From Acidimicrobiales bacterium (GTDB lineage Bacteria; Actinomycetota; Acidimicrobiia; Acidimicrobiales; DATLDH01): a stretch of 53,469 nt of DNA. Of the stretch, positions 18,304 through 45,231 are shown piece by piece (position 1 is the first letter of the stretch; every line of letters starts with the position of its first letter). The DNA lies in contig DATLDH010000141.1 of assembly GCA_035526015.1 (NCBI GenBank), positions 1-53,469 of the forward strand, given 5' to 3'. Both the position numbers and the translations under genes were made by a program. A model generated the notes under the pieces. It did not search any database. It was given only the letters and a program-made list of their open reading frames with translations, and had not been told where the DNA came from.

Positions 18304-18828
18304 ATGGCACGCGGCAACGATCGCGACCGGAAGCGGTCGCCCAAGGACCTGCGCGACCGCCGGGGCAAGAAGAAGGTCTGCATCTTCTGCAAGGACCACC
18401 TTCCCTGGGTCGACTACAAGGACGTCAACCTCCTGCGCCGCTTCATGAGCGACCGCGGCAAGATCCGCGCCCGTCGGGTGTCGGGCAACTGCACCCAGCA
18501 CCAGCGTGAGGTGGCGGTCGCCATCAAGACCGCCCGTGAGCTGGCGCTGCTCCCCTACACCCAGCGCACGGTGACCGAGCGCACCGGCGGGCGAGGTGGG
18601 CCGCGCGGCCCGCGTGGTGCGCCGGCCAACGTCGAGGCCCGTGCCGTCGTCGACCCGGTCGACGCCGAGCTGGCCGAGGTGCAGGCCGAGTTCTCCGGTG
18701 ACAGCGAGGACAGGGTCGCGGGTGCCGATCCGGCCGACCTCTCCGTCGGCGAGGACACGGGCGAGGACACCGTCGTGGAGACGGCGACGGCTGATGCCGG
18801 CGCCGGTGACGCGGAGGGCGACGAGTGA
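18304..18828 (+). CDS. rpsR: 30S ribosomal protein S18 with an ~84-aa acidic C-terminal extension
   Basis: The S18 core is [64 protein letters not shown] (residues ~22-85). The ORF continues to 174 aa with high GC3. Its stop overlaps the rplI GTG. Confidence 0.9.
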
Positions 18829-25888: not shown

Positions 25889-26944
25889 GTGGCGGCGTCC
25901 TACGCTCGCGACGTGACACTCACCGTGCTCGACCAGGGCCGCGTCACGGTGGTCGACGGGTCGGTGGGCGGCGGCCGCGTGATGGTCGACGACGTCTCGT
26001 TGACGCGGGCCACGGGCTTCGTGCGCAAGCCCGAGGGGTTGTGTCGGGGCGAGGTCTGCATCCCCGTGCGGCCGGGGTCGGGCCTCGACGACAACGCCGT
26101 CGACCTCGTCGCCGTGGCTTCTGTGCTGGGTCGGCCCATCGCCGTCGACGAGGATGCCGGCGCCGTCTACCTCGGGCCGGCCGCCACCGAGCGCGCCGCC
26201 GTCCTGCGGTCGGGTCGGGCCCCCGACTTCACGCTGCCCGACCTCGACGGGCGCCTGCACTCTCTGTCGGACCTGCTCGGCCGCAAGGTCGTCCTCGCCG
26301 TCTACGGCTCGTGGTGAGGGTGCGTCGACGACCTGCCGGTCTGGCAGGCTTTGCACGCTGAGCTCGAGCACCTCGGGTTCTCCATCGTCACCGTCGCGCT
26401 CGAGAAGGATCCCGAAGACGTCAGGCCCTTCATCGAGCGGGCGGCGCCCACCCATCCGAGCCTCATCGACACCGACTGGGTGGTCGCCGATCTGTACAAC
26501 GCGGTGAACGTCCCCAGCGTGGTGTGGATCGACGAGGAGGGCCGGATCGTGCGGCCCAACGACGCCGTGTTCGTCACCGGGACGTGGACGCGGGCTCACG
26601 GCGTCGACCACGAGCGTCACCTCCGGCGCATCCGCCGCTGGGCGACGACCGGCGAGGGTGCCATGACCGCCGAGGAGGCGGCCCGCCGCCAGCCCGTGCC
26701 CGACGCCGACCACCAGCAGGCGCGCGCCGAGTTCGGCCTGGCCCAGTGGCTGGCCCGCAACGGCCACGCCGACCGCGCCGAGGCCCACTTCGCGCGCGCC
26801 GGCGAGCTGGCGCCCCACGACTTCACCATCCGCCGCGGCTCGCTGCCCATCCGCGGCATCGACTCCCGTGGCGACGAGTTCCGCGAGATGGTCGTCGACT
26901 GGGTGGGGAAGGGCAACCCCTACTACGAGCTCCTGGAGGACTGA
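25889..26944 (+). CDS. thioredoxin-fold (ResA/TlpA-like redoxin) protein with an in-frame TGA at the active-site position; candidate selenoprotein, alternatively a nonsense pseudogene
   Basis: ORFs 25889..26317 and 26351..26944 share one frame. Read-through gives ...APDFTLPDLDGRLHSLSDLLGRKVVLAVYGSW-TGA-GCVDDLPVWQALHAELEHLGFSIVTVALEKDPEDV...VPSVVWIDEEGRIV. A SECIS-like hairpin follows the TGA. Confidence 0.55.
26322..26358 (+). promoter_or_regulatory. SECIS-like stem-loop immediately 3' of TGA 26315-26317
   Basis: The apical stem CCTGCC (26332-26337) pairs with GGCAGG (26343-26348) around the loop GGTCT (26338-26342). The lower stem GCGT (26322-26325) pairs with ACGC (26355-26358), with an imperfect middle section. 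The loop starts 21 nt after the TGA. Confidence 0.45.
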
Positions 26945-28441: not shown

Positions 28442-31084
28442 ATGCTGCTCGACCTCCTTCTCGTCCTCGCCGCGGCCAAGATCGCGGCCGAGGTCGCCGA
28501 GCGGCTGCGCCTCCCGGCGGTGCTGGCCGAGATCCTGGCCGGCGTCGTGCTGGGCCCATCGGTGCTCGGCGCCGTCGGCTCCGGCGAGGTCCTCCGCTTC
28601 CTCGCCGAGCTCGGGGTCGTGCTCCTGCTGCTCGAGGTCGGCCTGGAGATGGACCTCGGTGAGCTCGGCGCGGTGGGGCGGGCGTCGGTCCTGGTGGCCG
28701 TTGCCGGCGTGGCCCTGCCCTTCGTGGGTGGCTTCGTCGTGGCCTCGGCCCTGGGGGAGGCGGTGCACCCCGCCATCTTCGTGGCCGGGGCGCTGACGGC
28801 GACGAGCGTCGGCATCACGGCGCGCGTCTTCGCCGATCTCCGGGCCCTGTCGTCGGTCGAGGCCCGCACCGTGCTCGGGGCGGCGGTGGCCGACGACGTG
28901 CTCGGCCTCGTGATCCTCACCGTGGTGGTGCGTGTCGTATCGGCGGGCAACGTCTCGGTCGCCAGCGTGGGCGTGCTCATCGCCGGAGCCGTGGCCTTCC
29001 TCGTGGTCGCCGGCGGCGTGGGCGTGCAGTTCGCGCCGAGGATCTTCGCGACGATCGACCGCCACTCCCGGTCGACGGGCACCCTGCTGGCTGCCGCCCT
29101 CGTCTTCACCTTCGGCCTCGGCGAGCTGGCCGGCGTGGCCAAGCTGGCCCCGATCATCGGCGCCTTCGTCGCCGGCATCTCGCTGGCGAAAGCGAAGCAG
29201 GCCGAGCGCGTCCGCCGCGATCTCAACCCCGTCGGCCAGGTGCTCATCCCGGTGTTCTTCGTGCAGATCGGCCTCGACGCCGATCTCGCCAGCCTCATGC
29301 GGCCGTCGGTGGTTGCTCTCGCCGGCGCGCTCCTCGTCGTGGCCGTGGTCGGAAAGGTGGCGTCTGCGGCTGCCGCCGTCGGCTCGCCCGGCGACCGGTG
29401 GCTCATCGGCCTCGGCATGCTCCCCCGCGGTGAGGTCGGGCTGATCTTCGCCGGCCTCGGCCTGCGCGAAGGGATCCTCGGCGGCGACCTCTACGCCGCG
29501 CTGCTCCTCGTCATCCTCGCCACGACCCTCGCCACCCCGCCGCTGCTCAAGTGGCGGCTGCGTGCCGTGTCGGCCGCCCGCCGTGCCGCGCCGGGCCGGG
29601 CGCGCCCCGAGGGTGGCTGGTTCGATATCGCCGACGGCGAGGTCGAGCTGCGCGGTCGTCCCGGCCTTGACGTCGCGCCGATGCTGGCGTTGGAGGCGGC
29701 CCGCCGCCTGGCAAGCGACACCCGGCCGGGGTCGAACCTCCTCGACTGGTTCGCCCATCTCCCCCGCGACGCAGAACAGCCCCGGTGGGACGACACCACG
29801 CGCCGCGAGCTGTTCTCGCTCCTGCGCGTCGGGACGGCGCGGTCGTGGCGCTTCCTCGAGACCACGGGGATGCTCGACCGCGTCCTCCCCGAGCTGGCCG
29901 AGACCGTGCGGCGCCGGCGGGACGACGCGTCCGAGCTCGATCCCGCCCAGGTGCTGCGCTGGACCACGGTCGAGCAGGTCCACGCGCTGGCCGGCCACCC
30001 ACGGTTCCAGAACCTCGAGCACCCGGACTGGGTCTTCCTTGCCGCCCTCGTGCTCGACGTGGCCGGCAGCAACGAGCCGCCCGTGGAGGCGGCGCGCCAG
30101 ATCGTCGGGCGCCTCGGCCTGGGGGAGGAGGCCGAGGCCGAGATCGTGCTGCTGATCGACGAGCGCGGGCTCCTCCGGGCCGCGTCGGCCCGCCCCGACG
30201 GGTTGACCGAGGAACGCGTGCTGCCCCTCGCCCTCCATCTCGGGCGGCCCGAGCGCGTCCGGGCCATGCATCTGCTGACCCTTGCCCAGAACGACCTCCC
30301 GACCTGGCACCGCGACCGGCTGGAGGAGCTCGTCGAGCGCATCGGTCGCCTGCTCGCCCACGCCGACGTCACCGGTCCCGAGGCGAGGACCCTCGCCGAG
30401 CAGCGGCGCGCCGAGGCCGAGCAGCTCGCCACGTCGGCCGCCGTGCGCGAGCGGCTGGCCCACGCCCCCCGACCATGGCTGCTCGGGCTGCCGAGCGCCG
30501 CCCTCGTGCGCCAGGCCTCCCTGCTGGAGCCCGCCCCGACCGGCTCGATGATCCGCGTCGTCGTGACCGGCCCGCGGGTGGAGATCGGGTGCCGCGACCG
30601 CCGTGGGCTGCTGGCGGCGGTGACCGACGCGCTCACGAGGGCGCGGTTGACGATCACCGAGGCGACGACGGCGACGTGGGCTGACGGCGCCGTGGTCCTG
30701 GCCTTCGTCGTCGACGGCCCCGACGTGGATGCCCATGCGCTCACGGACCGGATCCGGAGATCCCTCGCCGCCCCACTCGCGGCCGAGCCCGTGCCCGACG
30801 CCGTCGTCGAGTTCGATGACGAGGCGTCGCCGTGGTACACGATCGCCGACGTGCACGCCACGGATCGTCCCGGCTTGCTGCACGCCATCACCGCCGCCAT
30901 CGCCGCCGCCGGCGCATCCATCCATTCGGCGCGCGTCGCCACCGACGCGGGCATCGCCCACGACCGGTTCGAGCTCACCGACCGGCGCGGCGCCAAGCTC
31001 TCGCCGTCGGTGCAGGACGCCGTCCGTGCCGCGTTGGTGACGGGCGTGGTGCCCAGGCGAAGGCCGTTCGCCGGCCGTCGGTAG
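28442..31084 (+). CDS. CPA2 (Kef-type) cation:proton antiporter fused to a GlnD-like central region (degenerate HD) and two ACT domains
   Basis: 880 aa. The N-terminal ~380 aa (MLLDLLLVLAAAKIAAEVAERLRLPAVLAEILAGVVLGPSVLG...) form a Na_H_Exchanger pattern. The middle section WRFLETTGMLDRVLPELAE resembles GlnD. The C terminus has two DRxGLL ACT motifs (CRDRRGLLAAVTDAL and ATDRPGLLHAITAAI). Confidence 0.85.
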   Translation: MLLDLLLVLAAAKIAAEVAERLRLPAVLAEILAGVVLGPSVLGAVGSGEVLRFLAELGVVLLLLEVGLEMDLGELGAVGRASVLVAVAGVALPFVGGFVVASALGEAVHPAIFVAGALTATSVGITARVFADLRALSSVEARTVLGAAVADDVLGLVILTVVVRVVSAGNVSVASVGVLIAGAVAFLVVAGGVGVQFAPRIFATIDRHSRSTGTLLAAALVFTFGLGELAGVAKLAPIIGAFVAGISLAKAKQAERVRRDLNPVGQVLIPVFFVQIGLDADLASLMRPSVVALAGALLVVAVVGKVASAAAAVGSPGDRWLIGLGMLPRGEVGLIFAGLGLREGILGGDLYAALLLVILATTLATPPLLKWRLRAVSAARRAAPGRARPEGGWFDIADGEVELRGRPGLDVAPMLALEAARRLASDTRPGSNLLDWFAHLPRDAEQPRWDDTTRRELFSLLRVGTARSWRFLETTGMLDRVLPELAETVRRRRDDASELDPAQVLRWTTVEQVHALAGHPRFQNLEHPDWVFLAALVLDVAGSNEPPVEAARQIVGRLGLGEEAEAEIVLLIDERGLLRAASARPDGLTEERVLPLALHLGRPERVRAMHLLTLAQNDLPTWHRDRLEELVERIGRLLAHADVTGPEARTLAEQRRAEAEQLATSAAVRERLAHAPRPWLLGLPSAALVRQASLLEPAPTGSMIRVVVTGPRVEIGCRDRRGLLAAVTDALTRARLTITEATTATWADGAVVLAFVVDGPDVDAHALTDRIRRSLAAPLAAEPVPDAVVEFDDEASPWYTIADVHATDRPGLLHAITAAIAAAGASIHSARVATDAGIAHDRFELTDRRGAKLSPSVQDAVRAALVTGVVPRRRPFAGRR

Positions 31085-31196: not shown

Positions 31197-32765
31197 TTGC
31201 AGAGACACCTCACGCGCCTGGCGCGCGCGTCGGCGGTGGTGGTCCCGGCGTTGCTCTTCGCGACGACGGCCATCGCCGCAGCCGACCCGACCGGCTCCAA
31301 CATCGAGGGGCCGGAATCACTCGACAAGGTCGGCATCGGCCTCAACCTGATGTGGATCATCGTGGGGGCGGTCCTCGTCGTGTTCATGCAGGCCGGCTTC
31401 GCCCTGGTGGAGACGGGCTTCTGCCGTGCCAAGCACGCCGCCCACGTCGTCAGCACCAACTTCGCCATCTTCGGGCTCGGCTTCGTCGGGTTCTTCCTGT
31501 GCGGCTTCGCGTTCATGTTCGGCGGCTTCAGCTACCCGGGCGTCTTCGGTATGGACCAGCCCATCGGGGAGGCCCTGCTCGGCTCCGGCAACTGGGTCTT
31601 CCTCTGGAAGGGCGGGTTCGCCCTCTCCGGCGACAAGGCCTACGACGTCGCGGTGGCTGCGTTCTTCCTCTACATGGTCGCGTTCATGGACACCGTCGCC
31701 ACCATCCCCACCGGCGCCATGGCCGAGCGGTGGAAGTGGCGCTCGTTCGTCGGCTGGGGCCTGTTCTGCGGCGCCGTCTACTACCCGCTGTTCGGGGCCT
31801 GGACGTGGGGTGGCGGTTGGCTCGCCAAGCTCGGCATCTCCAAGGATCTCGGCTTCGGCTACGTCGACTTCGCCGGTTCCGGTGTGGTCCACGCCGTCGG
31901 AGGCATCGCCGCCCTCGCCGGCGCGGTCGTGCTCGGGCCCCGCATCGGCAAGTATGGGCCCGACGGCAAGGCCCGCTCGATCCCGGGCCACCACATCCCG
32001 ATGGCCATGCTGGGCTGCTTCATCCTCCTGTTCGGCTGGTTCGGGTTCAACGCTGCGTCGACCTTCGCCGCCACCGACCTCCGGTTCACCATCGTGGCCA
32101 CCAACACGGCCATCGCCGCCGCCTTCGGGGCAACCATGGCCATGTTCTGGGTCATGCGCCGGACAGGGAAGCCGGACCCCGGGATGATGGTCAACGGCAT
32201 GCTCGCCGGCCTGGTGGCCATCACGGCGCCGTGCGCCTTCGTGCAGCCGTGGGCGGCCGCCGTGATCGGCACGATCTCCGGCGTCACGGTGATCGAGGCG
32301 GCGTGGATCATCGAGCGCAAGATGAAGGTCGACGACCCCGTCGGCGCCATCGCCGTCCACCTCGTGCACGGCATCTTCGGCGTGCTCTGTGTCGGGATCT
32401 TCTCCGACGGCAGTTACGGCCAGATGTGGAACGGCACCGACCACGGCGACCAGGGCGTCACCGGCATCCTGTACGGCAGTCTCGGTTGGGGCCAGCTGCT
32501 GGTCCAGGCCATCGGGGCCGTCACCATCATCGTGGTCATCGGCGGCATCGCCTACGCCTTCTTCAGCATCCAGAACAAGCTGACCAAGGGCGGGATCCGC
32601 CCGTCGGCCGAGGACGAGATCGGCGGCATGGACCTGCCCGAGATGGGCGCTCTCGCCTATCCGGAGTTCGAGTTCGCCATCGAGGAGTCCGACCCCGAGA
32701 TCGGGCACCGGCCGCTGGTGGGCTCGTCCCGCTCGTCCGGTCCTGACGAGGACGCCTACTCCTAG
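31197..32765 (+). CDS. amt: ammonium transporter (Amt family)
   Basis: 522 aa. TTG start after GGAGGA. Signal-like N terminus. Contains MWIIVGAVLVVFMQAGFALVETG, DFAGSGVVH and HLVHGIFG, the Amt signature regions. Confidence 0.93.
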   Translation: MQRHLTRLARASAVVVPALLFATTAIAAADPTGSNIEGPESLDKVGIGLNLMWIIVGAVLVVFMQAGFALVETGFCRAKHAAHVVSTNFAIFGLGFVGFFLCGFAFMFGGFSYPGVFGMDQPIGEALLGSGNWVFLWKGGFALSGDKAYDVAVAAFFLYMVAFMDTVATIPTGAMAERWKWRSFVGWGLFCGAVYYPLFGAWTWGGGWLAKLGISKDLGFGYVDFAGSGVVHAVGGIAALAGAVVLGPRIGKYGPDGKARSIPGHHIPMAMLGCFILLFGWFGFNAASTFAATDLRFTIVATNTAIAAAFGATMAMFWVMRRTGKPDPGMMVNGMLAGLVAITAPCAFVQPWAAAVIGTISGVTVIEAAWIIERKMKVDDPVGAIAVHLVHGIFGVLCVGIFSDGSYGQMWNGTDHGDQGVTGILYGSLGWGQLLVQAIGAVTIIVVIGGIAYAFFSIQNKLTKGGIRPSAEDEIGGMDLPEMGALAYPEFEFAIEESDPEIGHRPLVGSSRSSGPDEDAYS

Positions 32766-43032: not shown

Positions 43033-45231
43033 TCAGGTCGTGGGGCGTGGGCCTCCCCGGCCTTCGATGGCGTCGAGCAGGTGCATGGAGATGTCCTGGA
43101 CGAGGATGTCGTCCCGGCCGTTCTCCTTGACGCCGTCGTCCAGCATGATCAGGCAGTAGGGGCAGGCCGTTGCGATACGGGTGGCGCCGGTGGCGATGGC
43201 CTCCTGGGCCCGCTCGGTGTTGACCTTCTTGCCGACCGACTCCTCCATCCACATGCGGGCGCCGCCGGCCCCGCAGCACATGCCCTTGGTGCCGTTGCGG
43301 GGCATCTCCACGATGTCGATGCCCTTGAGCGACCCGATCACCTTGCGCGGCGCCAGGTACACGTCGTTGTGGCGGCCCAGATAACAGGAGTCGTGATACG
43401 TCACGCGCTCGGCCAGGGACGCCTCGCCGAGATCGAGCTTGCCGGTGTCGATCAGCCACTCGAGGAACTGGCTGTGGTGGACGACCTCGTAGTGGCCGCC
43501 CAGCTGCGGGTACTCGTTACCGATGGTGTTGAAGCAGTGGGGGCACTGGGTGATGATCTTCTTGACCCCCATCCCGTTCATCGTCTCGACGTTCTGGGTG
43601 GCGAGCATCTGGAAGATGTACTCGTTGCCCGACCGCCGGGCCGGATCGCCCGTGCACATCTCCGACGGGCCGAGGATGGCGAAGTCGATGCCGGCCCGCT
43701 GCAGCAGCTTGGCCGTGGCCACGCTGACCTTGCGGCTCTTGTCGTCGAACGAGCCGGCGCAGCCCACCCAGTAGAGGTACTCGTGGTCGAGGGCTGACGA
43801 GGCGTCGACGATGGGCACCTCGACGGGCAGGTCCTTGGCCCAGTCGGCCCGCTCGCCCTGGTTCATCCCCCAGGGGTTGCCCGCGTTCTCCATCTGCCGG
43901 TACGCGTTGCCGAGCTCGGCGGGGAAGTTCGACTCCATGAGCGACAGGTAACGCCGCATGTCGAGGATCTTGTCGAGGATCTCGATGTTCACCGGGCAGA
44001 TCTCGTCGCACGCCTTGCACGAGGTGCAGGCCCAGATCTCCTCGGCGCTGATCCGCTCGAACACCGAGTTGGCGGTCACCGTCAGCTCCGGGTCCTGGCC
44101 CACGACGGGCGAGACCGGCCCGCCCGGCGCGGTCGCGGCCATGACGTGGCCGACCTTGAGCACGATCTCGCGCGGGTCGAGCGGCTTGCCGGTGGCATGG
44201 GCCGGGCACACGCTCGTGCAGCGCCCGCAGACGGTGCACGCGTCGGTGTCGAGCAGCTGCTTCCAGGTGAAGTCCTCGATGGCGTTGGCGCCGAAGCTCT
44301 CGAGCTCGGTCTCCATGAGGTTGGGCATCGGCTTCATGGCGCCCTTGGGGCGCTCGCGGTCGCGGAGGTACATGTTCAGCGGCGAGGTGAACATGTGACG
44401 CAGCTTGGTGACCGGCAGGATCACCAGGAAGGCGACGAAGGCGAGGAAGTGGACCACCCAGGCGAACTGGTGCAGTGTGGCCAACCCCTCCCAGCCCTCG
44501 AAGACCTTGGAGAGCGGGTAGCCGATGATCGACCACTCCTCGAAGCCGGGGCGCTCGTGCAGGGCGATTCGGACGGCCTCGGTGAGGAAGCCGCTCAGCC
44601 CGATCAGCAGGAAGGTGCCGAGGATGACGGCGTCCTCGGGCCGGCTCTTGATGCGGATGCGGTAGGGCCGCTGGATGTAGCGGCGGACGATGGCCCACCC
44701 GATGCCGATCAGGAAGAGCAGGCCGGCGACGTCGCCCACCAGCGCGTAGCCGCGGTAGACGTCGCCGTGGAGGAAGCGGGCCGAGGGCGGCAGCTGGTGG
44801 TCGATCTCCAACGCAGTGGTGACGCCGAACAGGATGATGAACGGGAAGTAGATGAGTGAGTGCATGACGCCGGCGGCGGGATCGCGCAGCAGGGTCTGCA
44901 TGTAGACGCCGGCCCGGAAGTCGCGCAGCCGCCGACCGACGTTCTTCGTCGTGGTCGGCCGGGCGTCGGGTTGGCCGCGCTCCCAGTTGCGCGCCCGGCG
45001 ACTGAAGAGCCAGCCGACGGCGATGAACAGCGCCGGCAGGGTGACGTAGAAGACGACCTCGAGCGCGCCGGGGATGTTGCCGAACACCTCGCGGCTCACC
45101 GGCGAGGGGTCCTCCCACTTGGTGAGCGCGGGGATGGTGCCCAGCAGGACGGTGAGGCCGGCGACGACCGACCCGACGATCAGGCTCGCCTGGGAGGGCT
45201 TGAGCCGGGGGCGCGTGGCCATGCGCGTCAA
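43033..45231 (-). CDS. membrane-bound (Fe-S)-binding reductase (N-terminal heme-b/NarI-like membrane domain, 2x[4Fe-4S] ferredoxin and two CCG domains)
   Basis: 732 aa. About 5-6 N-terminal TM spans. Contains CTVCGRCTSVCP and CTSCKACDEICP, plus the CCG motifs CPHCFNTIGNEY and CCGAGG...ATACPYCLIML. Resembles the large mycobacterial iron-sulfur reductase found in this neighbourhood. Confidence 0.88.
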   Translation of the reverse strand: MTRMATRPRLKPSQASLIVGSVVAGLTVLLGTIPALTKWEDPSPVSREVFGNIPGALEVVFYVTLPALFIAVGWLFSRRARNWERGQPDARPTTTKNVGRRLRDFRAGVYMQTLLRDPAAGVMHSLIYFPFIILFGVTTALEIDHQLPPSARFLHGDVYRGYALVGDVAGLLFLIGIGWAIVRRYIQRPYRIRIKSRPEDAVILGTFLLIGLSGFLTEAVRIALHERPGFEEWSIIGYPLSKVFEGWEGLATLHQFAWVVHFLAFVAFLVILPVTKLRHMFTSPLNMYLRDRERPKGAMKPMPNLMETELESFGANAIEDFTWKQLLDTDACTVCGRCTSVCPAHATGKPLDPREIVLKVGHVMAATAPGGPVSPVVGQDPELTVTANSVFERISAEEIWACTSCKACDEICPVNIEILDKILDMRRYLSLMESNFPAELGNAYRQMENAGNPWGMNQGERADWAKDLPVEVPIVDASSALDHEYLYWVGCAGSFDDKSRKVSVATAKLLQRAGIDFAILGPSEMCTGDPARRSGNEYIFQMLATQNVETMNGMGVKKIITQCPHCFNTIGNEYPQLGGHYEVVHHSQFLEWLIDTGKLDLGEASLAERVTYHDSCYLGRHNDVYLAPRKVIGSLKGIDIVEMPRNGTKGMCCGAGGARMWMEESVGKKVNTERAQEAIATGATRIATACPYCLIMLDDGVKENGRDDILVQDISMHLLDAIEGRGGPRPTT

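Follow-up and report, generated by a model that had tools for sequence, protein, structure and literature searches.

The stretch of DNA analyzed here, referred to as the window, is a complete 53,469-bp contig (DATLDH010000141.1) from the metagenome-assembled genome (MAG) of an Acidimicrobiales bacterium. On its + strand, open reading frames (ORFs) 25889..26317 (GTG start) and 26351..26944 (TTG start) occupy one frame, and the sole stop between them is the TGA at 26315-26317. Read through this codon, the peptide is ...LAVYGSW-[TGA]-GCVDDLPVWQALHAE..., or, over a longer stretch, ...RKVVLAVYGSW-[TGA]-GCVDDLPVWQALHAELEHLGFSIVTVALEK.... This arrangement, two ORFs in the same frame split only by a TGA, was part of what first led to the locus being proposed as a candidate selenoprotein gene (the original prediction), and both the sequence and the ORFs are as then described. 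Our analysis indicates that 25913-26944 is very probably a genuine selenoprotein gene, with the UGA at 26315-17 read as selenocysteine (Sec). GenBank has no single entry for the gene; its parts are recorded as the hypothetical proteins HUQ40509.1 and HUQ40510.1. The gene, its annotated halves, and its key codons are as follows.

25913..26944, + strand: proposed complete selenoprotein coding sequence of 343 codons, then a TGA stop at 26942-44; an alternative GTG start lies upstream at 25889
25913-26317, + strand: HUQ40509.1 (VM030_10175), 134 amino acids (aa), starting at GTG 25913
26351-26944, + strand: HUQ40510.1 (VM030_10180), 197 aa, starting at TTG 26351
26315..26317, + strand: UGA as putative Sec codon, U135 in the 343-aa numbering, at the position of the nucleophilic first Cys in the ResA/TlpA WCxxC motif
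26321..26323, + strand: TGC, Cys137, the presumed resolving partner in U-G-C, a column that does not vary across 69 aligned homologues

Translation probably begins at the GTG at 25913 rather than at that of 25889, as this choice agrees with the N-termini of homologues (MTLTVLDQGR... versus MTSFTLLDDGR...) and with the GenBank call.

The GC content at third codon positions (GC3) is 0.93 upstream of the TGA and 0.95 downstream, and the coding-like codon bias reported earlier does extend across the gap. When both strands of the window are scanned, an in-frame TGA with strongly coding sequence on both sides is found at this site alone. TGA is also the commonest genuine stop in the contig, terminating 19 of 34 confident ORFs. 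Given these two observations TGA is not a reassigned codon, and reassignment was rejected. Reassignment is one form of a broader alternative in which the UGA is read without selenium, as Cys, Trp, or Gly, through near-cognate or suppressor decoding. Bacteria are known to insert Cys or Trp at UGA at a low level, which speaks for such a reading. The same stop usage and the single in-frame TGA in 53 kb speak against it, as do the nature of the site and the RNA that follows it, described below, and we consider it improbable.

A search of 5.8 billion proteins returned 1571 hits, of which the best 120 were inspected. Among these 120, every full-length homologue (~345 aa) has S-W-C-G-C at the site (115/115), and the five closest, at 64-68% identity, are fragments of 204-205 aa that begin just after the motif. 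The five are truncated because their contigs have S-W-TGA-G-C in frame with the upstream ORF. Scans of species-representative genomes and of Joint Genome Institute (JGI) metagenomes gave 144 related loci; in the fetched loci the codon at the site is TGA in 85 gene copies (71 distinct site sequences) and TGC or TGT in 58. The TGA forms come from Acidimicrobiia, Tepidiformaceae/Dehalococcoidia (Chloroflexota), Myxococcota, Binatia, and Acidobacteriota. Within Acidimicrobiia they occur in Ilumatobacteraceae, Acidimicrobiaceae, and Candidatus Poriferisocius, with at least a dozen MAGs from the class represented. Complete chromosomes also bear TGA forms, among them NZ_OZ241965.1 (Candidatus Poriferisocius) and OZ243954.1 (Tepidiformaceae). 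Cys forms prevail in Streptomyces, Catenulispora, and Streptosporangiales. The alignment of this column proposed in the original prediction thus finds Cys in the full-length homologues and TGA in gene copies from several phyla.

The nearest sequences, L001-L003, also have TGA and share 63-69% amino acid identity with the window protein downstream of it. In a neighbor-joining (NJ) tree the window sequence falls beside L001 and L003 within a large clade made up entirely of TGA forms, and parsimony places at least seven Sec/Cys switches on the tree. The site is therefore a redox-active Cys column with a classic Sec/Cys pair, which is difficult to reconcile with decoding that does not involve selenium; without Sec, selection would be expected to settle on TGC, the outcome seen in many relatives.

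Purifying selection acts on both sides of the UGA. The ratio of nonsynonymous to synonymous substitution rates (dN/dS) is 0.26-0.38 over both halves, and for the window against its two nearest relatives it is 0.28-0.38 upstream and 0.31-0.35 downstream, the downstream half being the more conserved of the two (63-69% identity in these comparisons). No copy has a secondary stop or a frameshift downstream of the TGA. Homologues that end at the site, or that lose similarity beyond it, would have spoken against the original prediction; instead, the TGA relatives keep the downstream coding sequence.

These data bear directly on two alternatives. The first, already raised with the original prediction, is that a recent nonsense mutation, or a sequencing or assembly error, changed TGC to TGA in a Cys-type redoxin and so inactivated it. 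A single base separates the two codons, Cys forms are common in the family, and GenBank holds two separate hypothetical proteins, all of which would fit a pseudogene. What does not fit is the identical TGA in 85 other gene copies from several phyla, including all nearest relatives of the window, the intact downstream frame in every copy, the downstream dN/dS of 0.26-0.35, and the downstream GC3 of 0.95; the idea was rejected as exceedingly improbable. The second alternative takes the GenBank record at face value, as two genuine separate genes for hypothetical proteins of 134 and 197 aa. Gene callers do produce this split, and a TTG start is available at 26351, but homologues are single polypeptides of ~345 aa, the TGA divides a thioredoxin fold (see below), and the 33 nucleotides (nt) between TGA and TTG encode the conserved G-C-x-x-D-L-P-V-W-Q, including the invariant C137 and W144. 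Two genes are thus scarcely credible. Taken together, the distribution of TGA and the selection data effectively rule out that the TGA arose by recent nonsense mutation or sequencing error and that the halves are independent genes.

The encoded protein has three domains, with a pair of conserved cysteines in the first.

25913..26215, + strand: N-terminal domain of ~100 aa, without a Pfam match, with a nearly invariant CxxxxC
26042-44 (TGT) and 26057-59 (TGC), + strand: C44 and C49, the CxxxxC of the N-terminal domain, in the 343-aa numbering
26216..26551, + strand: ResA/TlpA-like thioredoxin-fold domain (AhpC/TSA, Redoxin), crossing the UGA, by Pfam, profile alignment, and fold match
26588..26941, + strand: helical, TPR-like domain at the C-terminus, bearing the conserved HDFTIRRGS-P-RG motif, a region not aligned to NCBIfam NF041054

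The Pfam search was performed with a 351-aa reading in which Cys takes the place of the stop. It places AhpC/TSA (PF00578, 3.5e-15) and Redoxin (PF08534, 2.6e-12) at residues 110-221, across the TGA, along with a weak TPR match close to the C-terminus. As the AhpC/TSA and Redoxin matches cross the TGA, neither half is a complete fold, in agreement with the earlier statement that neither half alone would make a functional thioredoxin fold. A profile built from 69 family members aligns best with solved structures of ResA, TlpA, and related thioredoxin-family proteins. In this alignment the family S-W-C-G-C overlies W-C-x-x-C with a one-residue deletion, and the TGA column is that of the first active-site Cys, bearing out the placement originally made at the first Cys of the ResA/TlpA WCxxC.

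As a stand-in for the window protein, the AlphaFold model of a 50%-identical Cys homologue (P0002) was used, which has a predicted local distance difference test (pLDDT) score of 95.6, a predicted template modeling (pTM) score of 0.92, and three packed domains. Its central domain superimposes on ResA with a template modeling (TM) score of 0.8 and a root mean square deviation of 1.5-2 Å, with 24-34% identity to ResA/TlpA structures. A PDB search with the whole P0002 model revealed no solved structure spanning the whole protein, the central domain alone being matched; the N-terminal domain is modeled with high confidence, yet no PDB match to it is listed in this whole-model search. There is no hydrophobic segment at the N-terminus of the window protein (MTLTVLDQGRVTVVDG...), and it is therefore predicted to be cytoplasmic. 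The product would thus be a three-domain, cytoplasmic thiol/selenol oxidoreductase with a putative Sec135-Gly-Cys137 active site.

Downstream of the UGA, the coding sequence can form a hairpin resembling a bacterial selenocysteine insertion sequence (bSECIS).

26332..26348, + strand: apical mini-hairpin of the putative bSECIS, CCUGCC-GGUCU-GGCAGG, stem 26332-37 with 26343-48, loop 26338-42; the inner 5 bp are conserved
26322..26358, + strand: extended imperfect lower stem, seen in the minimum free energy fold of the window sequence and not conserved in relatives

The mini-hairpin, which codes for part of D-L-P-V-W-Q, has a stem of 6 bp, a loop of 5 nt, and an energy of -10.0 kcal/mol, with 20 nt between the UGA and the loop. 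In the consensus bSECIS model (PMC13188914), the loop is 3-9 nt, the stem 4-16 bp, the spacing 16-37 nt, and the energy -7.5 kcal/mol or lower, and the loop has a G within its first two positions, followed by G or U. The window hairpin agrees with the model on every count. The hairpin had originally been drawn over the whole of 26322-26358. Its apical CCUGCC/GGCAGG pairing and GGUCU loop hold, whereas conservation does not extend to the lower stem: RNAalifold, applied to 26 TGA forms, recovers a 5-bp apical stem as the sole conserved structure up to 50 nt from the UGA. The element can probably do without the extended lower stem, which is absent from the conserved fold of relatives.

The apical hairpin distinguishes TGA from Cys forms. 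A fully paired 5-bp stem with an NG[G/U] loop is present in 71/71 distinct TGA forms versus 14/54 Cys-motif sequences, the latter including two spurious matches from outside the family (nominal Fisher p 4e-21, with sequences that are not phylogenetically independent). Loops among the TGA forms are GGUCU, CGUGU, CGGGU, AGGUU, and CGGCU. Changes within the stem of TGA forms always preserve pairing, as in the compensated UUGCC/GGCAA of L027, the wobble CUGUC of L004, and a Q-to-R change (CAG to CGG) in L101 and L134 that retains a U-G pair. The Leu codon of Cys forms varies freely (CTC, CTT, CTA, TTA), and these forms also have E or D instead of Q, while pairing is never broken in Sec forms. The TGA relatives therefore keep the apical hairpin, compensatory changes included, as expected from the original prediction. 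That a SECIS-type hairpin is kept specifically in TGA forms also counts against decoding of the UGA without selenium.

Several observations nevertheless weigh against Sec at this site. The genes selA, selB, and selD and a tRNA-Sec were not found in the window: ARAGORN reports only a tRNA-Gly, and NCBIfam scans of ten large window ORFs identify dnaB, dnaK, dnaJ, clpB, PBP1A, amt, and similar genes but no sel genes. Likewise, tblastn with approximate Escherichia coli SelA, SelB, and SelD queries yields only generic GTPase-domain matches and no sel genes in the window and ~1.5 Mb of the relatives' loci, and ARAGORN finds no tRNA-Sec in 41 TGA-form loci. The TGA-form and Cys-form sequences are related by phylogeny, so their counts overstate independence. 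No Rfam SECIS model is matched, either at gathering thresholds over the whole window or at permissive E-values over 26250-26450, an outcome to be expected of a bacterial SECIS. The 64-nt fold does not outperform shuffled sequences (z = -0.73), and in the window, which is 71% GC, an equivalent hairpin follows 8.8% of all UGA trinucleotides; by itself, then, the hairpin is weak evidence. It is moreover in part a by-product of the conserved LP[V/G]WQ peptide under high-GC codon usage, and the same hairpin sequence, CTGCCGGTCTGGCAG, is present in true TGC forms, L084-L086. These Cys forms lie at 10415 in L084, 10397 in L085, and 10418 in L086, and in L084 a CAA codon breaks one pair. On the machinery, the lineage offers circumstantial support for Sec use, as selA, selB, selC, and selD are documented in Actinomarinales, the sister order within Acidimicrobiia, with Sec machinery reported for all 84 complete genomes of that order (bioRxiv 10.64898/2026.04.03.716425).

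The permissive Rfam scan of 26250-26450 also returned mir-1180, Guanidine-II, and SNORA52, all of which were dismissed as chance matches. The Guanidine-II match is to the first hairpin of that model, at 26281-26300 on the - strand; it scores 17 bits versus a gathering threshold of 32 and falls within the coding sequence, in antisense orientation.

The coding constraint on the hairpin could be taken further, to the view that the hairpin is a mere side effect of encoding DLPVWQ and that a functional SECIS, if any, lies elsewhere. High-GC codons for LPxWQ yield CUGCC...GGCAG automatically, which would account for the same sequence in the TGC forms L084-L086, and the lower stem is not conserved. 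Coding alone does not readily explain why full pairing and a G[G/U] loop occur in every one of the 71 TGA forms and in so few of the 54 Cys forms, why Sec forms show synonymous changes in the Leu and Gln codons only where these are compensated (UUG with CAA), or why their amino acid changes are confined to ones compatible with pairing (P to S, Q to R). RNAalifold also offers no second candidate element near the UGA. We regard a purely incidental hairpin as unlikely, though less so than the other alternatives considered here. As the stem codes for the conserved L-P-x-W-Q and the TGC forms L084-L086 keep it, the RNA element appears to be partly pre-encoded by the peptide. This may make switching between Cys and Sec easy, and the SECIS-like element may predate or outlast the use of Sec.

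The Sec/Cys column, the selection on both sides of the UGA, and the conserved mini-hairpin together support the candidate selenoprotein of the original prediction. From the arrangement of codon, hairpin, and fold we infer how Sec would be inserted and used. SelB carrying Sec-tRNA(Sec) would bind the hairpin, whose GGUCU loop starts 21 nt after the UGA, and would sit at the ribosomal A site on arrival of the UGA, so that Sec would be inserted at 26315-17 during translation. In the finished protein, Sec135 would be the attacking nucleophile and Cys137 the resolving residue, roles suggested by their position in the thioredoxin-fold active site, with a selenenylsulfide formed across the CxC-type motif. 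Possible roles for the N-terminal CxxxxC and the TPR-like domain are electron relay and the binding of a partner.

The neighbors of the gene in the window encode a histidine phosphatase and an acyl-CoA thioesterase. No conserved gene neighborhood was found among the relatives, and genomic context therefore provides no clue to function. In Tepidiformaceae/Dehalococcoidia, two tandem paralogues of the gene lie ~1.1 kb apart, both with TGA and the CUGCC-GGUCU-GGCAG hairpin. They are seen at L005 (9269, 10397) and likewise at L007-L010, L012-L014, L017-L020, L089, and L093, with an ordinary tRNA-Ser (UGA anticodon) just upstream.

Elsewhere in the window, the following features were observed.

28442-31084, + strand: 880-aa protein in which a Na+/H+ exchanger membrane domain is fused to C-terminal ACT domains, an unusual fusion, directly upstream of an ammonium transporter gene
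31197-32765, + strand: the ammonium transporter gene
43033-45231, - strand: 732-aa HdrD/CCG-type Fe-S oxidoreductase with a NarI-like membrane N-terminus, a weak match to NF045663 "diclust_near_Sec" (82 bits versus a cutoff of 530)
18304-18828, + strand: unusually long ribosomal protein S18 ORF of 174 aa, with the S18 domain at residues 36-83 only, reflecting either a long extension or a mis-set start

To place the protein among known families, it was compared with curated models. Its best NCBIfam hit (E = 4e-74) is NF041054, "WAxxUGC_long," an equivalog model for ResA-like WAxxUGC motif-containing proteins. The two are of similar size (354 profile positions versus 343 aa), their N-terminal and redoxin domains align, and they share the U-G-C. 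At 250 bits the window protein is below the cutoff of 300, as are nine further relatives, Sec and Cys forms among them; all ten tested proteins score 205-267 bits. The best aligned stretch of the window protein covers profile positions 8-204 of 354, which leaves the C-terminal third outside, and in 9/10 tested relatives the alignment ends near position 204. The motif differs too, being Y-G-S-W-U-G-C in the window and [W/Y/F]-[A/S/G]-S-W-U-G-C in relatives versus W-A-x-x-U-G-C in NF041054. On sequence grounds, the window clade is a sister group with a different C-terminal domain, outside the curated NF041054 model, which may be the reason that the NCBI annotation missed the Sec codon. The motif name "WAxxUGC" itself gave no match in a literature search.

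A related group has been described in the literature. The 2008 GOS (Global Ocean Sampling) survey reported "Prx-like (UGC-containing)" proteins of pfam00578, with 46 Sec sequences and 855 Cys homologues, that were commoner in non-marine samples (PMC2398784), and UGC-type redoxin selenoproteins also appear in a 2026 review (PMC13188914). With these Prx-like (UGC-containing)/TlpA-family selenoproteins the window protein has in common an AhpC/TSA-TlpA-like fold, a U-G-C motif with a single Sec, and many CGC homologues. The non-marine bias fits the soil, freshwater, and sponge MAG sources of the window relatives. The published UGC entries (representative MDE0950781.1) give the motif and domain only. 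Together with NF041054, these reports confirm the suggestion in the original prediction that U-G-C ResA-like selenoproteins may already have been catalogued.

The window gene is accordingly a new, unannotated member of a kind of selenoprotein catalogued since 2008, and no new category is opened. Its practical value is for annotation, as the public record and most gene callers split the gene in two. Since gene callers do so and NF041054 scores the whole clade under its cutoff, the same mis-annotation probably affects the 85 gene copies from Acidimicrobiia, Chloroflexota, Myxococcota, Binatia, and Acidobacteriota. The gene would also extend Sec use to an Acidimicrobiales lineage of soil and freshwater and offers a clean example of a very small SECIS overlapping a conserved peptide motif. 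More tentatively, and with the balance leaning against it, the clade could be a distinct cytoplasmic selenoenzyme family missed by curated models, defined by a CxxxxC N-terminal domain, a U-G-C redoxin, a TPR-like C-terminal domain, and a minimal SECIS largely pre-encoded by LP[V/G]WQ, in which a single TGC/TGA change could switch between Cys and Sec. If so, one-base toggling would account for the seven or more switches on the family tree.

Among characterized proteins, the solved structures nearest to the central domain are those of Bacillus subtilis ResA and Bradyrhizobium TlpA, and the proposed Sec aligns with the N-terminal active-site Cys of both. Where ResA and TlpA have CxxC, the window protein has U-G-C, a CxC-type motif one residue shorter. 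Unlike the extracytoplasmic ResA and TlpA, it lacks a signal peptide or membrane anchor, is not encoded among cytochrome-maturation genes, and has additional N- and C-terminal domains and, as we propose, selenium.

The RNA element, for its part, resembles the SECIS of E. coli fdhF, as first noted in the original prediction. Counted from the U of the UGA, GGUCU begins at nt 22 in fdhF (NC_000913.3) and at nt 24 in the window. In both, a hairpin closely follows the UGA within the coding sequence, GGUCU is part of the apical loop region, and the consensus bSECIS is matched. In the window element the conserved part is a perfect mini-helix of 5-6 bp with a 5-nt loop, and no conserved lower helix is present, which sets it apart from fdhF. 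The fdhF SECIS also has a bulged U, for which the window hairpin has no counterpart.

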